Positions 5,835 to 42,130 are shown, counted from the stretch's first letter. The stretch is 42,130 bases of DNA from Gemmatimonadales bacterium (GCA_044449465.1 JBIOHX010000001.1:1-42130); one strand, 5' to 3'. The notes: generated from the letters alone by a model not told the origin. Program-made: numbers and translations.

Positions 5835-6230
5835 GTGACTCGAGGATCCACGCTCGCCGTTGCCGTGGGTCAGCCTGGGGCGACTGGTGTGGTGCGCGGC
5901 ACCATCTTCGGACAACTCCAGATACTCGCTAGCGACACGGTGGGCGCGGGCACGACGCCCGATCGTGTTGCCGGCGCGACGGTCGATGTGTCGCGAGAGG
6001 TCCGCGACTCGACGAGCGACAACGGCCCCGTCACCGTGACGACAACGCATATCGGAACGATCGTGAGCGACACCAGCGACCGCTTCACGCTGACGAACGT
6101 CGCGAAAGGCTACTACCAATTCGACGTCACGCCGCCGAGCGGATCGCCGTACAAGCCGGCGACGTTTTCCGGCCTGGCGTTCGACACCACCGATACGCAA
6201 GCAACCGCGGTGTTTCTTCACTCCAAGTAG
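5835..6230 (+). CDS. Hypothetical protein with a carboxypeptidase-regulatory-like (CarboxypepD_reg-type) beta-sandwich pattern
   Basis: A 131-aa ORF with a GTG start. The pattern GVVRGTIFG...AGATVDV...SD..DRFTLTNVAKGYYQFDVTPP resembles that domain. No signal peptide is visible and the start is uncertain. Confidence 0.4.
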   Translation: MTRGSTLAVAVGQPGATGVVRGTIFGQLQILASDTVGAGTTPDRVAGATVDVSREVRDSTSDNGPVTVTTTHIGTIVSDTSDRFTLTNVAKGYYQFDVTPPSGSPYKPATFSGLAFDTTDTQATAVFLHSK

Positions 6231-17017: not shown

Positions 17018-17689
17018 TTAGTTCCGTGCGACGCTCACGCCTGCATTGGCGGCTTCCGACGCCGTGACCTCGATGGCTCGCGCGCACATGATCAATCCCG
17101 CGAGCAACGCGATTGCGCCCGTCAGCCGGGCGATGCGCGCGCCGGTGGGCGCAGCACGCTCAGCGGTGATTGACGCCGTGATCACGAGCATCGTGCGCGT
17201 GTCCATGAGTCCCGTGACGAAAAATACCGCCATTGGCGCCGCGCAGCTCAGGGCGCAGTCGACGCCGAATCGGCAGCCGTCTCGCCATGCGGTAGTCACG
17301 TTCCCAGAGACCGTTTGCGCCGCGACAGACGCCTGATGGCAGCGGCGGAGTCGCTTCGCTTTCCAGCGCGAGCGCTGCACCGCGCCGATACACAGAACGG
17401 TCGCGCCTGCCGTCCACGCGCCGAACGACGGATGCGTCGGCGATGTTCCCGTCATCCGAGACAGTTCCGCAGTCGTCGCGAACAGCACCAGCCCAATCAC
17501 GGCCCATAGGCTCGCATATCCCGAAGCGAAGAGCGTGGTCCGCTGGCCGGCGCGCGACACTCCCATTGCGCGCAGCCGGCGATGATGGCGCCAGAGGGTG
17601 GGCGCGACCGACGGCAGCATCATCGCCACCATCATTGCGACCGTCACGAGCGCCATCACCGCCGGTGATGTCATTTGCATCGAGCTCAT
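17018..17689 (-). CDS. DUF2182-like integral membrane protein (predicted metal-binding)
   Basis: The hydrophobic ORF begins MSSMQMTSPAVMALVTVAMMVAMMLPS.... I take the ATG at 17689 as the start because it forms an ATGA overlap with the upstream DUF899 stop. The track start at 17764 is an Arg-rich extension. Confidence 0.6.
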   Translation of the reverse strand: MSSMQMTSPAVMALVTVAMMVAMMLPSVAPTLWRHHRRLRAMGVSRAGQRTTLFASGYASLWAVIGLVLFATTAELSRMTGTSPTHPSFGAWTAGATVLCIGAVQRSRWKAKRLRRCHQASVAAQTVSGNVTTAWRDGCRFGVDCALSCAAPMAVFFVTGLMDTRTMLVITASITAERAAPTGARIARLTGAIALLAGLIMCARAIEVTASEAANAGVSVARN

Positions 17690-18486
17690 CGCGCCGGGTA
17701 CTTGTCGCGGTGGCGCATCCAGACGCCATGCTCGTTGCGGCCGAGCGGGGCGCGGTCGAGCCACTGGTACATGCCCCAGAGACCGTCGAGCCCGCGCGCG
17801 AACGTGGAGTAGGTGTGATGGACAACTCCGTCGCGCACCGCGAACGCGCTCATCCCGGGGCGTTCGCGCAAAAACGTGGCGACATCAACGCCGGCAGAGG
17901 CGGCGATCTGGCCGACCGGCGCTTCGCTCCCCAGCTTCTTCCACTCTGGAAGCGTACGCTTCAGCGCCGAGTCCTGCATCGGAGACTCTCGGCGATAGTT
18001 GTAGTCGATTTCGCCGCTACGCTGCTCGAGCTCCGTGAAGGCGACGCTGAAGTCGAAGTTGAAGTCGCCGCCAAAGGAGGATGCCCATGGGAATGCCCAC
18101 CCCATGCGCTGCTTGTAGCCTTGCAGCTTGGCGAGTGGAGCGCGCGAGACTGCGTACAGCGACACGTCGTGATTCTCGAGATGGACGGCGATGCCATTGA
18201 AGCCGTCGGCGATGCTCGAGCACGACGGACAGCCCGCGGCGTAGTCCGGGCCGAACATGCAGTGGTATACGAGCAACTGCGAACGTCCGCGGAACAGGTC
18301 GGCCAGCGACGCGCTTCCGTCGTCCGTGTCGAACCGGTAGTCTTTCGCGACCGGCACCCAGGGCAAAGCCTGTCGTTGGCGCGCTACCTCGTCACCGCGA
18401 TGCGTCAAGTCTTTTTCGGCCTCGAGCAGGGCGAGGCGAGCGGTCAGCCATTCTTCGCGTGTTCCGGCGGTCATCGTCGTCGTCAT
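17686..18486 (-). CDS. DUF899 thioredoxin-like family protein
   Basis: ATG at 18486 is preceded by GGAGAGAACGACC. The sequence MTTTMTAGTREEWLTARLALLEAEKDLTR..YRFDTDDG..LFRGRSQLLVYHCMFGPDY..GCPSCS...YQWLDRAPLGRNE is characteristic of DUF899. The track merges it into a 702-aa ORF. Confidence 0.8.
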   Translation of the reverse strand: MTTTMTAGTREEWLTARLALLEAEKDLTHRGDEVARQRQALPWVPVAKDYRFDTDDGSASLADLFRGRSQLLVYHCMFGPDYAAGCPSCSSIADGFNGIAVHLENHDVSLYAVSRAPLAKLQGYKQRMGWAFPWASSFGGDFNFDFSVAFTELEQRSGEIDYNYRRESPMQDSALKRTLPEWKKLGSEAPVGQIAASAGVDVATFLRERPGMSAFAVRDGVVHHTYSTFARGLDGLWGMYQWLDRAPLGRNEHGVWMRHRDKYPAR

Positions 18487-18613
18487 GGTCGTTCTCTCCA
18501 GTAGCTTGTGTCGATGGGGCGGCGCGCCGTCGCATGACCAGCGCCCGGTGAACGAGCGATAGATTAGGAGCCGGCCAGTCGAGGGTGTGAGTAACAAGTG
18601 TGACGGGATTCCC

Positions 18614-19834
18614 ATGGACTCGATGATCGTCGCGGCCGGTCGCGCGCTCGCGGCGGGCGATCCGTTCGGCGCGCTGAACCGTGTGGCGCTGCGCGACGAC
18701 GCGGCGGCGCTCGCGTTGCGCGGGATCGCCATGGCGCAATTGGGAGATCTCGAACGCGCCCGCGTGCTGCTTCGGCGTGCGGCGAGAGCCTTTGGGCCGC
18801 GAGAGGCCGTGGCTCGCGCACGGTGCGTCGTCGCCGAGGCCGAGATCGCGCTCGTGACGCGGGATCTCGGCTGGCCAGTCAAGGCGCTCGAGGCAGCGCA
18901 TGCAACGCTAGCCGGGCAGGGCGATGTCGTGAATGCCGCCCACGCACGGCACCTCGCGGCTCGCCGGTTCCTTCTCACCGGACAGTTGGACCACGCGGAG
19001 CGCGCCATCGCCGATCTCGACGTGTCGGTGTTTCCGCCTGCATCGAGAGCCGCGTTCGAGCTCGTCGTCGCCGGCATCGCACTTCGCCGGCTGCGGACGC
19101 GGCCGGCGCGCGACGCACTCGCACGTGCCGCGATCGCGGCGAAAGCCGCCGGCATCCCGTCGCTCCTGGCCGAGGTCGAGCGGGCGTCTCTCGCTCTGGA
19201 TACACCGGCGGCGCGACTCATTCGGGCCGGCTCCGAACGACCGCTCTTGCTCGAAGACGTCGAAGCCGTGCTGGCGTCGGAGGCGCTGATCATCGATGCC
19301 TGCCGGAATGCCGTTCGGCACTCGGGCGCGTCGATATCGCTCGCGACGCGTCCCGTCCTCTTCGCCCTCGTTCGTGCGCTCGGCGAGGCCTGGCCAAACG
19401 ACGTCGCGCGCGATGTGCTTCTGGCGCGCGCCTTCGGCGCGAAGTACGTCGATGACTCGCACCGCGCGCGGTTACGCGTCGAGATCGGGCGGCTTCGCGT
19501 TGCCCTCCGCCGTGTCGCCAACATCCGCGCCACGAAGCGAGGGTTCGTGCTCGGACCGCGCCGCACGGGCGAGGTCGTGGTGTTGGCGCGGCCCATCGAA
19601 GAGGAGCATGCCTCGCTCCTCGCACTGCTCGACGACGGCGAAGCGTGGTCCACCTCGGCGCTCGCCCTGGCGATTGGAGCGAGCCAGCGCACGTTGCAGC
19701 GCGCGCTGGACTCGCTCGCGCGGGAAGGGAAGGTGCAGCCGTTCGGGCGCGGCCGCGCCCGGCGGTGGATCATGCCTCCCATCTCGGGATTCACGACAGC
19801 ATTGTTACTCCCCTCTGCGCTGCCGATCGAGTAA
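18614..19834 (+). CDS. Putative HTH transcriptional regulator (helical-repeat N-terminus, winged-helix-like middle, C-terminal HTH)
   Basis: The ORF runs 18587..19834, with the first ATG at 18614. The middle segment ISLATRPVLFALVRALGEAWPNDVARDVLLARAFG...RLRVEIGRLRVAL resembles an OmpR-type trans_reg_C domain. The C-terminal LLALLDDGEAWSTSALALAIGASQRTLQRALDSLAREGKV is HTH-like. It is divergent from the DUF899 operon. Confidence 0.55.
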   Translation: MDSMIVAAGRALAAGDPFGALNRVALRDDAAALALRGIAMAQLGDLERARVLLRRAARAFGPREAVARARCVVAEAEIALVTRDLGWPVKALEAAHATLAGQGDVVNAAHARHLAARRFLLTGQLDHAERAIADLDVSVFPPASRAAFELVVAGIALRRLRTRPARDALARAAIAAKAAGIPSLLAEVERASLALDTPAARLIRAGSERPLLLEDVEAVLASEALIIDACRNAVRHSGASISLATRPVLFALVRALGEAWPNDVARDVLLARAFGAKYVDDSHRARLRVEIGRLRVALRRVANIRATKRGFVLGPRRTGEVVVLARPIEEEHASLLALLDDGEAWSTSALALAIGASQRTLQRALDSLAREGKVQPFGRGRARRWIMPPISGFTTALLLPSALPIE

Positions 19835-19843
19835 GCTCACGCC

Positions 19844-20482
19844 ATGCGCCAATCCACTGCCGAGATCATTCGCGAGTACGGCCCGTTTCCGCGGGCGAAG
19901 AACATAGGCGGCGTCACCTACGATGGTCAGTCCGTGTGGTTCGCCGCCGGGGATGCCGTGCGCGCATTCGACCCCGCGACAGGCGAGGAGCGCGATGCGA
20001 TCGAGGTGCCGGCGCACGCTGGTACGGCGTTCGACGGCCAATTTCTCTATCAGATCGCCGAAGCACGAATCAACAAGATCGATCCAAAGACCCGGCGCGT
20101 GGTGTCGACGATTCCGGCACCCAGCGGGGGTGGCGATTCGGGACTAGCATGGGCGGAAGGGACGCTCTGGGTCGGCGAGTATCGCGCGCGAAAGATTCAT
20201 CAGATCGATCCGGAAACCGGAGCGATTCTTCGCACGCTCGAATCCAACCGGTTCGTCACGGGCGTTACGTGGGTCGAGGGCGAGCTGTGGCACGCCACCT
20301 GGGAGGGCGACGAGAGCGATCTTCGTCGCATCGATCCGAGCTCGGGCGCGGTGCTCGAACAATTGGAGATGCCCGCGGGCGTCAAGGTCTCGGGGCTCGA
20401 ATCGGACGGGAAGGATCGATTCTATTGCGGTGGTGGAAATAGCGAGACGGTGCGGGCGGTGCGTCGGCCGGGAAGGGCGTGA
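19844..20482 (+). CDS. Beta-propeller repeat protein, glutamine cyclotransferase-like
   Basis: A 212-aa ORF starting 10 nt after the regulator stop. Repeated blades such as KIDPKTRRVV, HQIDPETGAILRTL and RRIDPSSGAVLEQL, with W-containing strands, resemble plant/bacterial-type glutaminyl cyclase propellers. The family assignment is tentative. Confidence 0.5.
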   Translation: MRQSTAEIIREYGPFPRAKNIGGVTYDGQSVWFAAGDAVRAFDPATGEERDAIEVPAHAGTAFDGQFLYQIAEARINKIDPKTRRVVSTIPAPSGGGDSGLAWAEGTLWVGEYRARKIHQIDPETGAILRTLESNRFVTGVTWVEGELWHATWEGDESDLRRIDPSSGAVLEQLEMPAGVKVSGLESDGKDRFYCGGGNSETVRAVRRPGRA

Positions 20483-20483
20483 C

Positions 20484-20602
20484 GTGGGTCGTGGGTCGTG
20501 GGTCGTGGGTCGTGGGTCGTGGGTCGTGGATCGTGGATCGTGGATCGTGGATCGTGGATCGTGGATCGTGGATCGTGGGACGCGGGACGTGGGACGTGGA
20601 TG
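20484..20602. repeat. 7-bp microsatellite of 17 head-to-tail units
   Basis: Counted directly: 6x GTGGGTC (20484-20525), 7x GTGGATC (20526-20574), GTGGGAC, GCGGGAC, GTGGGAC and GTGGATG (20575-20602). The array starts 2 nt after the TGA at 20480-20482. Confidence 0.95.
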
Positions 20603-20652
20603 GATACGAGATTGGCGATTCCTTGCCTGGTGCGACGTCAAAGTGTTTAGAT

Positions 20653-20790
20653 CCGTTTGTGTCCGCTTGTGTCCGCTTGTGTCTTTCACCAATCGTTACG
20701 GCCAGCCCGAGCGGCAGTTCAGCGTCCTCGCCGCATGCAGACCATAACAATTGGACACCGATTAAAACGGACACAAGCGGACACGGGCGG
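20653..20790. repeat. Inverted 10-mer iteron pair flanking a spacer of about 86 nt
   Basis: Three direct units CCG(T/C)TTGTGT lie at 20653-20682. Inverted copies lie at 20767-20790 (ACGGACACAAGCGGACACGGGCGG). GACACAAGCGGACAC (20770-20784) is the exact reverse complement of GTGTCCGCTTGTGTC, which occurs in two registers (20659-20673 and 20669-20683). Confidence 0.9.
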
Positions 20791-20866
20791 ATGGCTGGGA
20801 CGCCCGATCGCGCGGTGGCCGCGCATGACTGCTCGGTCGCGTCGGCCGAAGCCGCGGTGACTTCGC

Positions 20867-21628
20867 CCGGTGCGGCTGGGAGTGCGTCCGGTGCGGTTGG
20901 GAGTGCGTCCGAAGCGGCAGGGAGTGCGTCCGGTGCGGTACGGAGTGCATCCGGTGTGGCACACAGTGCGTCCGAGGCGGCAGGGAGTGCGGGCCGCGAT
21001 CGAATCACTGCGTCCGGTCGTGGGCGCGCCGCGTCCGATGGCTCGGAGACCACGGAGTGACGACGTGTGAGCGCGCCATGCGGCTCGTGCACGGCGCCAG
21101 GTCGCCCGGAGACTGCGCCAGGAAGCAAAGCGACTGCGCCAGGAAGCAAAATGACCACGCCATGACATTCGGGGCCGGCGGGCGATCGCAGAGTCGCCGC
21201 GACGTGTCGCGGGTTTACGGCGGCATCTCGCAGGGTCGCGCGGCCGGATCGCAGAGTGACTTCGCCATGACGCAGAGTGGCCGCGCCTTGGCGCAAGGTG
21301 ACTACGCCGTGCTGCCCGATCGCCCGGGCAGACTGCAGGATCGCATCGGAGCAGTCCAGAGTGACGCCGGCCGATCGCAAAGTGGCGGCGACGTGGCGTA
21401 AAGTGGGATTGCCAGCTCGCAGAGTGGTGTCGGCAGCGGCGAAAGTCGCGGCGCCCAGCTGCAGGGTGGCGGCGGGATGCCCGGCGATGACGAGTCGATG
21501 CTGCAGACTCGTCGCGTCAGGTCGCAGAGTGAGCGCGGGGCAAAGCAAAGTGCGCGCGGGGCAAAGCAAAGTGAGCGCGGGGCAAAGCAGAGTGACCGCG
21601 AGGCAAAGCAGAATGAGCGCGCCTGAGG
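20867..21628. repeat. Degenerate tandem array with a strict 21-bp register (about 36 units, several sub-families)
   Basis: Six units of CCGGTGCGG(C/T)TGGGAGTGCGT type span 20867-20992, and 2x GACTGCGCCAGGAAGCAAA.. span 21111-21152. CGCAGAGT occurs exactly at 21187, 21250, 21271, 21418 and 21523, all offsets being multiples of 21, with 1-2 nt variants at 21229, 21292, 21376, 21397 and 21460. Five units of GCA(G/A)A(G/A)TG.GCGCGGGGCAAA type span 21524-21628. Confidence 0.9.
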
Positions 21629-21803
21629 GCGCGGTGGGCAGAGAGGTTGGCTGGCGGTCCGGCTTCGCCACTCGAGTCCGCACTGGGTTCGCGATGCTCG
21701 TCGCCGTGCGTCGTCATCGACGGAGCGCGTCTCGCGAAGCGGCGGCGCAAGGGGTGTCGCTGTAGCGGTTCGCCGGCGGGGCAGCGCGGGCGCTGTCGCG
21801 GAG

Positions 21804-22769
21804 CTACTTCATCTTGACGGCCCGCTGCCGCACGCCGCCTTGAACGAGCGTCAGCCCCGCGGCGTTACCGGCGTCGTCCAAGTCGAACTCGAGCGTCACG
21901 GCCGTCGTCGCTTTGATGAAAAACCTGGTGGGTGACTCGGCGAAGAGCTGAATGGGTAGCTGCTTCCCAGCTTGGAGCATCAGTTTGACGCCGTCGAAGG
22001 TGACAGCGAAGGTCGCGGTCGGGTTCAGCGAATACTCGCCGATGAGTCGCTGGAGCATCGCGGGCGAGAGCGGGATCTCCACTCGCGCCGCCTTGGCCGC
22101 CGCATCGGCGGCGTCGAAACCGGCGGCCAACCTCGCGGCGTCGAGCGACTGCACTCGCCGTGTCTCTTGGCCGCCTTCGCGCAGCGCGAGCAACCGTCCA
22201 TTCCGGTCGACACGTGCCCAGATCGCCGGCCCGATGTGGACCGAGTCGTCTCCGAAAAACTTCACGGGAAGGATTTGCGGGGGTCGGCGCACCTCGACTT
22301 GCTCGATCGCGATGCTCGCACTGTCCGCGTGCGCGGCGCGCGCTCGAGTGAGCGCGAGATCCCAAGCCAGGATCGAGATCGCGGCCATCGGATACGACCG
22401 GGTCGTGGCCACGCGCATGGTGACCGCCGTGGAGTCCCTCACCATGACACGGGTGGCGCTGTCGCGGCCGTAGGTGACGCTCATGAGAAAGGTGTGCGGG
22501 GCTGCGGTGTACAGCGACATGACGTATTGCGCGGGCCAGCCCTCGGCGTCGAGCACGAGCGTGTAGTCGTGCACGAGCGCGGTGCCTTGGTGCTGGATCC
22601 AGGCTCCCGTGATCGTGTGTCCGGCGCGGACGTATTGCTCGATCGACGTCGTGTCTTTGCCGCGCGTCGTCACGAACGACGTCGTGTCCGGCGTCTGGGC
22701 GACAAGGCCGCCGGCGAGGCATAGGGTGGCGACGACGAGGCGAGTGGCGAGCATCCGATGGTGTCGCAT
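21804..22769 (-). CDS. Secreted hypothetical protein
   Basis: A 321-aa ORF with a signal-peptide-like N-terminus MRHHRMLATRLVVATLCLAGGLVAQ. The C-terminal roughly 90 aa (LQRLIGEYSL..TFAVTFDGVKLMLQAG..PIQLFAESPTRFFIK..TLEFDLDDAGNAAGLTLVQGG) resemble the small beta-lactamase-associated C-terminal domain (DUF3471-like). That resemblance is tentative. Confidence 0.55.
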   Translation of the reverse strand: MRHHRMLATRLVVATLCLAGGLVAQTPDTTSFVTTRGKDTTSIEQYVRAGHTITGAWIQHQGTALVHDYTLVLDAEGWPAQYVMSLYTAAPHTFLMSVTYGRDSATRVMVRDSTAVTMRVATTRSYPMAAISILAWDLALTRARAAHADSASIAIEQVEVRRPPQILPVKFFGDDSVHIGPAIWARVDRNGRLLALREGGQETRRVQSLDAARLAAGFDAADAAAKAARVEIPLSPAMLQRLIGEYSLNPTATFAVTFDGVKLMLQAGKQLPIQLFAESPTRFFIKATTAVTLEFDLDDAGNAAGLTLVQGGVRQRAVKMK

Positions 22770-22887
22770 GAGGATGTGACGATGAGGTGTTGCCGTCGAC
22801 GGGGACCGGGGGGCGTCGGGCAGGTTACGGCGACAGACCGGCGGCGGGAATCGTCCGGAAGGCGCGACGAGCTACAACTTTTGGCGG

Positions 22888-41292: not shown

Positions 41293-41666
41293 CTCAGATC
41301 TGAGGGTCTGAGAGATATGAGATATGAGATGTGAGGGTTCAGGGCGGCGCCTGGGGCGGTGCGCTGGGCGGATATCGCGACGTCGTTGAGCGAGATCAAG
41401 CGTCGAGATGTCAGCGTCGAGATGGCAGAACGGAGATAGGGGCGATGCGAGATGGCAGAACGGAGATAGGGGCGATGCGAGATGGCAGAAGGGGAGATAG
41501 GGGCGATGTGAGATGGGCCGGGGCATACCGCCGACGTCTGACATCGCTGTCATCTCCGGACTTGGATCTCGCAGCTGATTTCTCGAAGCTTGGTCTCGTT
41601 TAGAGACGTCGGGGTCTCGAACGACAAGCGCGCTCTCCAACGTCGACTGAGAACTCCAATCTCAAC
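41293..41666. repeat. Long imperfect palindromic intergenic element (MITE/REP-like), copy E2
   Basis: It fills the whole gap between two convergent ADOP genes. It begins with the palindrome CTCAGATCTGAG (41293-41304) directly after the TGA at 41290-41292. The left-arm core 41376-41414 and the reverse complement of the right-arm core 41575-41613 each match E1 36790-36828 at 32 of 39 positions. Confidence 0.85.
41421..41511. repeat. Three tandem copies of a 30-bp unit inside E2
   Basis: GATGGCAGAACGGAGATAGGGGCGATGCGA occurs at 41421-41450 and identically at 41451-41480. A 31-bp variant lies at 41481-41511. Each copy contains the 14-mer GGAGATAGGGGCGA, which is also present in E1 at 36846-36859. 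Confidence 0.95.
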
Positions 41667-42130
41667 TCATCCGGATCGGAGGGCCTCGGATGGATCGACT
41701 GCGGCTGCGCGCCGTGCTGGGATCCAGCTGGCGGCGAGGGCAACGAGGAGTAGGGTGACGCACGTTCCGACGAGAATCGTGGGGTCGGTGGGGCTCACGT
41801 CGTAGAGCAACGAGCGCAGGAACCTCGTCACGCCGATGGCCGTGGCGACGCCGATGGCGACGCCGATGGCGGCGAGGCCGACGCCGTCGCGCGAGATCAT
41901 TCGCCGGACCTGCGACGGTTGCGCGCCGAGGGCGATGCGCACGCCAATCTCGCGCCGCCTCAGGCTCACGCCGTAGGCCATGACCGCGTAGAGGCCGACT
42001 GCGCCGAGGACGAGTGCGAGAAGGCTGGCGACGGCGACGAGGAGCAGCATTTCGCGGGCGCGTGCCGACGCGGCGCTGACGAGGTCGCCGAGGGGCTTCT
42101 CACCGTACGTCGGCAGCGACGGGTCGAGCG
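41667..42130 (-). CDS. ADOP-type permease, C-terminal part only (N-terminus beyond the window end)
   Basis: The frame is open to base 42130 (...LDPSLPTYGEKPLGDLVSAASARAREMLLLVAVASLLALVLGAVGLYAVMAYGVSLRRREIGVRIALGA...IPARRAAAVDPSEALRSG). The track lists only the part from an internal Met. Confidence 0.85.
   Translation of the reverse strand, partial: LDPSLPTYGEKPLGDLVSAASARAREMLLLVAVASLLALVLGAVGLYAVMAYGVSLRRREIGVRIALGAQPSQVRRMISRDGVGLAAIGVAIGVATAIGVTRFLRSLLYDVSPTDPTILVGTCVTLLLVALAASWIPARRAAAVDPSEALRSG

Follow-up and report, generated by a model that had tools for sequence, protein, structure and literature searches.

A tandem array of 39 diverged 21-bp units in a single register between two convergent genes of a Gemmatimonadales bacterium, probably a non-coding minisatellite

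Bacterial non-coding minisatellites, including variable number tandem repeats (VNTRs), the mycobacterial interspersed repetitive units (MIRUs) and the other markers used in multiple-locus VNTR analysis (MLVA), are made of head-to-tail intergenic units that are specific to particular lineages and contain recent sub-families and higher-order periods. A typical VNTR has a few to about 15 near-identical copies. The tandem array described here lies in a stretch of 42,130 nucleotides from a Gemmatimonadales bacterium (GCA_044449465.1 JBIOHX010000001.1:1-42130), referred to as the window and numbered from its first letter. It resembles the minisatellites in its arrangement, lineage specificity, sub-families and higher-order period but comprises 39 units of 21 bp. 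Likeness between most units is only about 50%, and all have exactly the same length. The array is most plausibly a lineage-specific non-coding minisatellite, a reading given a probability of roughly 0.55 on the basis of the observed periodicity, register, lack of a coding signal, absence from relatives and repeat-rich context. Two properties of that class are present, namely head-to-tail copies of a 10-100 bp unit and a location outside protein-coding sequence. Apart from its unusually exact spacing the array is most likely an ordinary repeat expansion.

The 39 units are contiguous and occupy positions 20804-21622 in one register without a gap or indel. Identity at lag 21 over this interval is 0.581, while the highest value at lags 4-100 in 500 first-order Markov resamples is 0.372. 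Within 20867-21650 identity at lags 21, 42, 63 and 84 amounts to 0.57, 0.54, 0.52 and 0.50, compared with about 0.29 at all other lags, and when the DNA is written in rows of 21 the common columns are visible by eye. The sequence CGCAGAGT occurs at 21187, 21250, 21271, 21418 and 21523, with offsets that are all multiples of 21. An initial annotation of this DNA had reported these five sites and a degenerate array without net indel, correctly on both counts. It had placed about 36-38 units at 20867-21650; the array is real but these bounds are not, because three in-phase units lie upstream of 20867 and extend it to 39 units at 20804-21622.

The register was followed with two weight matrices. 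The first, built from the units at 21182-21622 and applied leave-one-out, places 19 of the 21 units of that interval best at offset 0 with a positive score (one of the other two scores 1.0 and one is unrecognisable) and finds the units at 21119 and 21140 strongly in phase. For the second, 31 units from all parts of the array were used and the whole contig was scanned; of its 26 plus-strand matches that score at least 9 within 20804-21622, 25 are at phase 0. A quarter of the units are too degenerate for matrix scoring, and Tandem Repeats Finder (TRF) recovers only the better-kept stretches (20867-20991, 21109-21162, 21250-21308 and 21524-21621), all with period 21 and 0% indels. The units contain no 7-bp sub-periodicity, identity at lags 7 and 14 being at the background value of 0.28, and derivation from a 7-bp repeat was rejected for lack of a signal at these lags. 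The array can be divided as follows, with no strand assigned to any part:

20804..20866: three core-type units (starts 20804, 20825 and 20846; matrix scores 11.9, 4.0 and 5.4), each best at offset 0
20867..20992: sub-family A, six units of CCGGTGCGGCAGGGAGTGCGT (TRF period 21, 6.0 copies, 79% matches, 0% indels)
20993..21097: five strongly degenerate units (matrix scores -2.5 to 3.4)
21098..21622: 25 core-type units with consensus CAGGTCGCAGAGTGACCGCGC, delimited by TRF, lag identity and the weight matrices
21119-21160: sub-family CAGGAAGCAAA, within the core-type block
21539-21622: sub-family GGCAAAGCARAGTGAGCGCGG, within the core-type block

The first three units are in register with units 250-800 bp downstream, and the in-phase units most like them, found up to 27 units away, differ from them at 5-6 of 21 positions. 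For the five degenerate units the nearest in-phase relatives differ at 6-10 positions, where out-of-phase 21-mers of the same DNA differ at 15.0 +/- 2.0 (first percentile 10). Sub-family A has a 63-bp higher-order period, seen as an additional TRF row. It measures 126 bp, or 6 x 21, and the register is therefore preserved across it. In this sense the annotated in-register position of the 5' sub-family stands, but its own in-phase likeness to the core family is weak to marginal, and against blocks C and D it aligns best at a shift of 17 rather than 0.

One open reading frame (ORF) runs through the whole array:

20382..21683, minus strand: open frame of 433 amino acids (aa) with a GTG start, judged not to be a gene

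The initial annotation had noted this frame and its overlap of about 100 nt with the neighbouring gene; the frame exists, and the antisense overlap is 101 nt. It also crosses a microsatellite and a palindrome that precede the array. As the only frame without a stop through the array, in a register of exactly 21 bp or seven codons, it invites the reading of a real minus-strand gene, from 21683 to 20382, for a basic heptad-repeat protein of R-x-G-A-V-T-L type that could be beta-helical. The three most variable columns of the unit (1, 4 and 16) are third positions of this frame, and heptads of the form x-T-[LV]-R-D-G-x or x-T-L-T-x-G-x do occur in real proteins, with repeats that match beta-helix families of Pfam. 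Such a gene is nevertheless very improbable. When the columns of the array are shuffled the minus frame stays free of stops in 4.3% of trials and some frame does so in 6.6% (about 1 in 15). A stop-free frame constitutes weak evidence for coding, the open frame by itself being a 4-7% chance event.

The composition and the substitutions of the frame are those of non-coding DNA. Codon-usage log-odds, trained on 15 genes of the contig, are -0.10 per codon for the 433-aa frame and at or below -0.05 for all six frames of the array, against +0.42 +/- 0.09 for the genes, whose minimum in 780-nt windows is 0.15. G+C at four-fold degenerate sites is 0.685 in the frame and 0.844 (0.789-0.893) in 16 genes; column 4, which would be the four-fold site in the 'Arg' codon, varies freely with a G+C of only 35%. 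The ratio of nonsynonymous to synonymous divergence (dN/dS) between units is 1.02 for adjacent pairs and 0.97 for all pairs, no lower than in other frames, so that the statement that the variable core positions are all synonymous for Thr-Leu-Arg proves selective once every unit is counted. Second codon positions form the most variable class. Column 19, a third position, is the most conserved of the unit: it is C in 24 of 25 units ('Gly' codon NNC) while the first two bases vary, and the encoded residue shifts among G, P, A, V, L, D and S despite the invariant third base. The 'Thr', 'Arg' and 'Leu' positions are dominated by the rare codons ACT, CGA, CTT and TTG. Neither G+C per codon position nor entropy per codon phase gives a coding signal in any frame of the array. 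No sequence resembling a ribosome-binding site (RBS) precedes the GTG start, and no ATG occurs in the whole 433-aa frame. Read-through from the neighbouring DUF3471 gene was considered and rejected, as the two share a frame but are separated by two stop codons.

Homology and structure prediction agree with this. The ORF contains no Pfam family, and a word-indexed search of 5.8 billion proteins returned no match to it and no called gene of this contig corresponding to it; the neighbouring DUF3471 call is present there. HMMER against 1.84 billion representatives gave 30 matches (best 1.8e-17) of mixed kind. Beta-helix repeat proteins whose heptads read DGRLTVR or ATLTSGN stand beside coiled coils and the AAVLRQS tail of a eukaryotic Mab-21 protein. 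The matches reflect the likeness between periodic sequences and not a family. AlphaFold2 run on the single sequence yields a mean predicted local distance difference test score (pLDDT) of 40.4 and a predicted template modelling score (pTM) of 0.21. Coding in any strand or frame was rejected, as codon log-odds, codon-position G+C, four-fold G+C, dN/dS and codon-phase entropy give no sign of it. The arguments against coding in the initial annotation (low G+C at third positions, rare codons, no RBS, overlap with the neighbour) hold on checking, and its non-coding alternative agrees with per-frame log-odds and four-fold G+C that show no coding-like frame. The cryptic heptad-repeat protein that it proposed as the other option is not supported, with codon usage, four-fold G+C, dN/dS, the position of the conserved columns, homology and structure prediction all against it.

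The heptads R-x-G-A-V-T-L of the array frame are superficially like the x-T-[LV]-R-D-G-x of heptad-repeat beta-helical proteins (PF21930, DUF4097 and DUF6799; the DGRLTVR repeats of P0032 and P0036), but the array frame lacks their Pfam matches, is non-coding in composition and substitutions and has no confident structure. P0032 and P0036 are unrelated to the window. They carry long DGRLTVR/DGRVTVR heptad runs and a common C-terminal motif, GLGL[VL]TKIASMKNPPV.W.DCDLIA; one of the two is a fusion with a clostripain (Peptidase_C11) domain, and the repeat family is apparently little described.

The array is absent at all 15 related loci examined. At six loci with relatives of the DUF3471 protein (60-71% aa identity) it is missing, and in two of these (L001 and L002) the next convergent gene follows directly. 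It is equally missing at nine loci with relatives of the beta-propeller protein encoded on the other side (88-89% aa), where the downstream gene is different in each lineage. The closest relatives found are 71% identical for the DUF3471 protein and 88-90% for the beta-propeller. Upstream, a block conserved in Gemmatimonadaceae (window 17443-20482 against L246-L254) comprises DUF899, YCII, a regulator-like protein of 406-415 aa and a beta-propeller of 212-214 aa. With the upstream block kept, the downstream gene varying by lineage and no array in the relatives, synteny breaks at the gap, and the array is specific to this lineage. The regulator-like protein (406 aa in the window) has a weak C-terminal winged-helix match, and the beta-propeller keeps 81-90% identity across the 120 best out of thousands of metagenome proteins.

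Array-like units were likewise not found among the matches listed in pattern scans of public genomes and metagenomes. The scan of genome contigs used three GCARRGTG cores at 21-bp spacing, and its listed matches are mostly (GCAGAGT)n heptamer microsatellites and coding 21-bp repeats; the metagenome scan, with a stricter skeleton, gave at least 120 unrelated 21-bp arrays. The locus has no blastn match in plasmid and phage collections, and an origin from a plasmid or phage was rejected on this ground. In the rest of the 42-kb contig the motif is not enriched, with 14 matrix matches where 26.5 +/- 5.2 are expected.

The array occupies part of a 1.3-kb gap between two convergent genes with stop codons at 20482 and 21804, in which a heptamer microsatellite, a palindrome and the 21-bp array follow one another:

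ends at 20482, left of the gap: 212-aa beta-propeller protein (SGL/Glu_cyclase_2)
20483..20599, plus strand: heptamer microsatellite (TRF period 7, 16.7 copies, 95% matches), beginning one base beyond the TGA stop codon of the beta-propeller gene
20651..20792, no strand assigned: imperfect palindrome, with 10-bp direct repeats GTGTCCGCTT x3, about 30 nt, then inverted copies of AAGCGGACAC type
ends at 21804, minus strand, right of the gap: DUF3471 protein

The microsatellite consists of (CGTGGGT)6, then (CGTGGAT)7, then GGGACGY units. Its G3-N4 spacing is predicted to allow G-quadruplex formation in the plus strand and its transcript, and a short-read assembly may have collapsed its copy number. 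The palindrome has one inverted repeat with arms of 56 nt (I1, 73% complementary) and one of 22 nt (I2, 91%), together with a TRF period of 10 in 3.2 copies, and is possibly a long bidirectional stem-loop between the convergent genes. Terminal inverted repeats of the kind that would bound a miniature inverted-repeat transposable element (MITE) around the array come down to a 21-nt pair, 71% complementary and judged by eye to be at chance level; a MITE-like element was rejected.

The contig looks like Gemmatimonadaceae, the best named relatives of both flanking proteins coming from metagenome-assembled genomes (MAGs) of this family. Its remaining content (cox-type molybdoenzyme genes, MacB/FtsX permeases, peptidases and two-component systems) looks chromosomal, and no replication or partition gene (rep, par or initiator; ParA, ParM, ParB or ParR domains) is present among the 26 ORFs scanned against Pfam. 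An AT-rich element is not apparent around the array, as G+C never falls below 55.5% in any 200-bp window of 19500-22799. Tandem periodicity occurs at only one other place in the 42 kb, 41386-41573, which is also in a convergent gap. This second repeat-built gap (41293-41690) separates two convergent MacB/FtsX permease genes and holds GAGAT-containing 7-, 14- and 30-bp repeats on its left (41312-41516) and complementary ATCTC/GTCTC motifs on its right.

Related Gemmatimonadales loci have other tandem arrays at the 3' ends of genes, and the spacer tends to collect repeat-built DNA in this lineage. In L243 (10960-11135), (GTTCGTAGTTCCG)x7 and inverted copies stand directly after the stop codon of a DUF3471 paralogue or orthologue (63% aa), between convergent genes; the architecture is that of the gap in the window, whereas sequence and period (13 bp) differ. 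Paired microsatellites are found at gene 3' ends in Gemmatimonadales MAGs (L064 317-471, 2619-2750 and 6114-6306; L073 715-912; L008 594-676 and 4274-4362). Each pair has a purine-rich heptamer array starting at or within the stop codon and a C-rich array of 7-8-mers, with some 13-43 nt between them (about 40 nt at two of these sites). Two spacers of L064 (about 2661-2701 and 6161-6201) are alike, and one contains a promoter-like TTGACG-N18-AATACT. Microsatellites of the types (GCAGAGT)n, (GCAAAGT)n, (GCAGGGT)n and (GCAAGGT)n are present in numerous genomes (L003-L121, among the matches listed) of many phyla, among them Bacteroidota, Planctomycetota, Acidobacteriota, Chloroflexota, Gemmatimonadota and Verrucomicrobiota. 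They often lie at contig ends, and a genome can have several (Planctomycetaceae Th196P3bin88, Blastocatellaceae SRP189682_co1_249).

The position directly downstream of both convergent genes, with no sigma-70-like promoter or intrinsic terminator found in the gap, raises the question of a role in RNA. The array would in that case be transcribed as the 3' tail of a convergent gene and act as an extended zone of Rho loading or termination, or as a sponge for an RNA-binding protein recognising GUCACUCUGCG. Neighbouring gaps in the lineage do carry repeat-built, terminator-like hairpins. The plus strand is G-rich (GC skew +0.1 to +0.25), and a transcript entering from the DUF3471 side would therefore be C-rich and G-poor; compatibility of such a transcript with a Rho-type termination zone is only an idea. 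Against this, on neither strand does the array fold better than its shuffles (z-scores +0.71 and +0.37), and Rfam gives no family at the gathering threshold and, at relaxed thresholds, only a weak match to a microRNA model, which falls on the palindrome. A structured RNA was rejected on these two grounds. Moreover, no promoter-like site was found, an RNA role does not require an exact 21-nt register, and the relatives show no conservation. An RNA-level element is accordingly improbable.

Under the minisatellite reading, a 21-bp unit, sometimes in blocks of two or three units, would have been copied head to tail many times between the two convergent genes, most likely by replication slippage or unequal recombination, and the copies would then have diverged through point substitution. 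This duplication mechanism and the absence of function are inferred. Copying moves whole units, and the register would therefore be inherited. The process would have had at least two phases, an old layer of units now diverged by about 45-50% and later local bursts, to which sub-family A would go back together with the CAGGAAGCAAA pair and the GGCAAAGCA block. No protein would be made, and the open minus frame would simply result from a G+C-rich unit in which stop codons happen to be missing. Neighbouring units differ at a mean of 9.3 positions, compared with 11.05 for units at least 17 units apart, and likeness falls weakly with distance (Spearman r 0.19, permutation p 0.0055). That neighbours are slightly more alike is predicted by local duplication.

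Four observations weigh against the minisatellite reading. Copy-number variation is the hallmark of this class, to which the array is assigned here from one assembled sequence. A minimum spanning tree over the 39 units needs at least 223 substitutions, and no base is gained or lost in any unit. Published bacterial indel-to-substitution ratios predict about 4-20 indels for this number of substitutions, and neutral decay should thus have left several where there are none. Conservation is also uneven between columns, which plain neutral decay from a single ancestral unit does not predict. In 30 units compared with CAGGTCGCAGAGTGACCGCGC the mismatches per column range from 0/30 to 19/30 (chi-square 85.7, 20 degrees of freedom, p = 4e-10), the columns at the two ends of this range being:

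column 19: 0/30 mismatches
column 18: 3/30 mismatches
column 6: 4/30 mismatches
column 7: 5/30 mismatches
column 12: 6/30 mismatches
column 15: 7/30 mismatches
columns 1, 4, 16 and 20: 16-19/30 mismatches

The kinship of the units inflates this chi-square, though probably hardly enough to cancel the unevenness. Lastly, many units have their closest relative far off in the array.

Exact spacing and uneven columns would be expected of a phased protein-binding array; an unusual mutation regime or repeated in-register conversion could also account for them. In the first case the 21-bp units, each two helical turns long, would be putative sites for a protein that coats one face of the DNA as a nucleoprotein filament or scaffold, with a predicted contact skeleton of G6 C7, G11 T12, C15, C18 G19 and C0. 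Titration, a barrier between the convergent transcription units, and segregation or anchoring are candidate roles. Selection for such sites, possible but on balance unlikely, would agree with 39 units kept in one register through some 223 substitutions without an indel, with conserved columns that are position-specific and cluster in short contiguous blocks without a period of 3, and with similar units scattered through the whole array and not only adjacent to each other. On the other hand, no gene for a candidate binding protein is peculiar to the locus, and the 26 ORFs scanned include no rep, par or initiator gene. The motif is not enriched in the rest of the contig, the 15 related loci lack the array, the plasmid and phage collections have no match to the locus, the consensus has no clear dyad symmetry when judged by eye, and a quarter of the units are too degenerate for scoring. 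The same gene content, database, enrichment and conservation results leave the protein-binding, centromere/iteron-like and nucleoid-structuring functions suggested in the initial annotation without contextual support; a constraint at the DNA level is possible in view of the missing indels and the very unequal column conservation. A still more tentative and rather doubtful proposal sees the array as a selected, helically phased landing pad for a new DNA-binding protein on a Gemmatimonadaceae chromosome, its 39 putative sites two helical turns apart building a one-sided filament or a superhelical nucleoprotein body. If true, this would account for the survival of the spacing and of a GC-N3-GT-N2-C-N2-CG skeleton while half of the other positions changed.

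A collapsed or chimeric join of repeat-containing reads in metagenome assembly is barely conceivable as the source of the array. The contig comes from an uncultured lineage, it contains near-identical sub-families (A and D) and a 117-bp microsatellite of the kind that short-read assemblers collapse, and similar microsatellites are often at contig ends in other assemblies. Most units, however, differ from every other at four or more positions, and with units so distinct from each other the k-mers are mostly unique and the assembly path is well defined. The flanking genes are intact and have orthologues on both sides. Doubt is confined to the copy numbers of the youngest sub-families.

If the array is a minisatellite only, it cautions against taking long open frames in G+C-rich tandem repeats for genes, and it exemplifies how convergent gene ends in Gemmatimonadales gather repeat-built DNA. 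If its spacing and skeleton are selected, it would rank among the largest phased binding arrays known from a bacterial chromosome and point to a new DNA-organising protein in a poorly studied soil phylum.

Several other known systems are built on short repeats. In type III toxin-antitoxin loci, ToxI-like arrays consist of a few tandem repeats of about 34-45 nt just upstream of a ToxN-type toxin gene; here the unit is 21 nt and present 39 times, neither strand has a co-oriented gene directly downstream, and Rfam gives no match. The units are contiguous, without the spacers of a CRISPR (clustered regularly interspaced short palindromic repeats) array. Iterons (R6K, RK2) and plasmid centromeres (F sopC, R1 parC, pSK41 parC) are like the array in that their direct repeats, about 20 bp long, are spaced by a multiple of the helical repeat, which places the sites on one side of the DNA. 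They have 3-12 well conserved copies beside rep or par genes on their replicon, whereas the 39 copies of the array are diverged and the 26 ORFs scanned include no such gene. An iteron-type origin adjoins a rep gene, while the flanks here are a beta-propeller and DUF3471, and the AT-rich unwinding region of iteron origins is not apparent near the array, in a gene content that looks chromosomal. The parA/parM gene and adaptor pair that belong to partition centromeres (parC, sopC, parH) are likewise not among the ORFs scanned. Heptameric simple sequence repeats (SSRs) are over-represented in bacterial intergenic regions, as in the cyanobacterial short tandemly repeated repetitive (STRR) sequences, GGGAATC of Xanthomonas and GGGGAYT of Nostoc (PMC4692102). 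They sometimes form inverted pairs between convergent genes, vary among close relatives and have no established function. The (CGTGGGT)n array of the same gap is like them, and 21 is 3 x 7, but the 21-bp units have no residual 7-bp periodicity. The array is a known kind of feature, a bacterial tandem repeat, made unusual by the number of its diverged units and by their exact phase.

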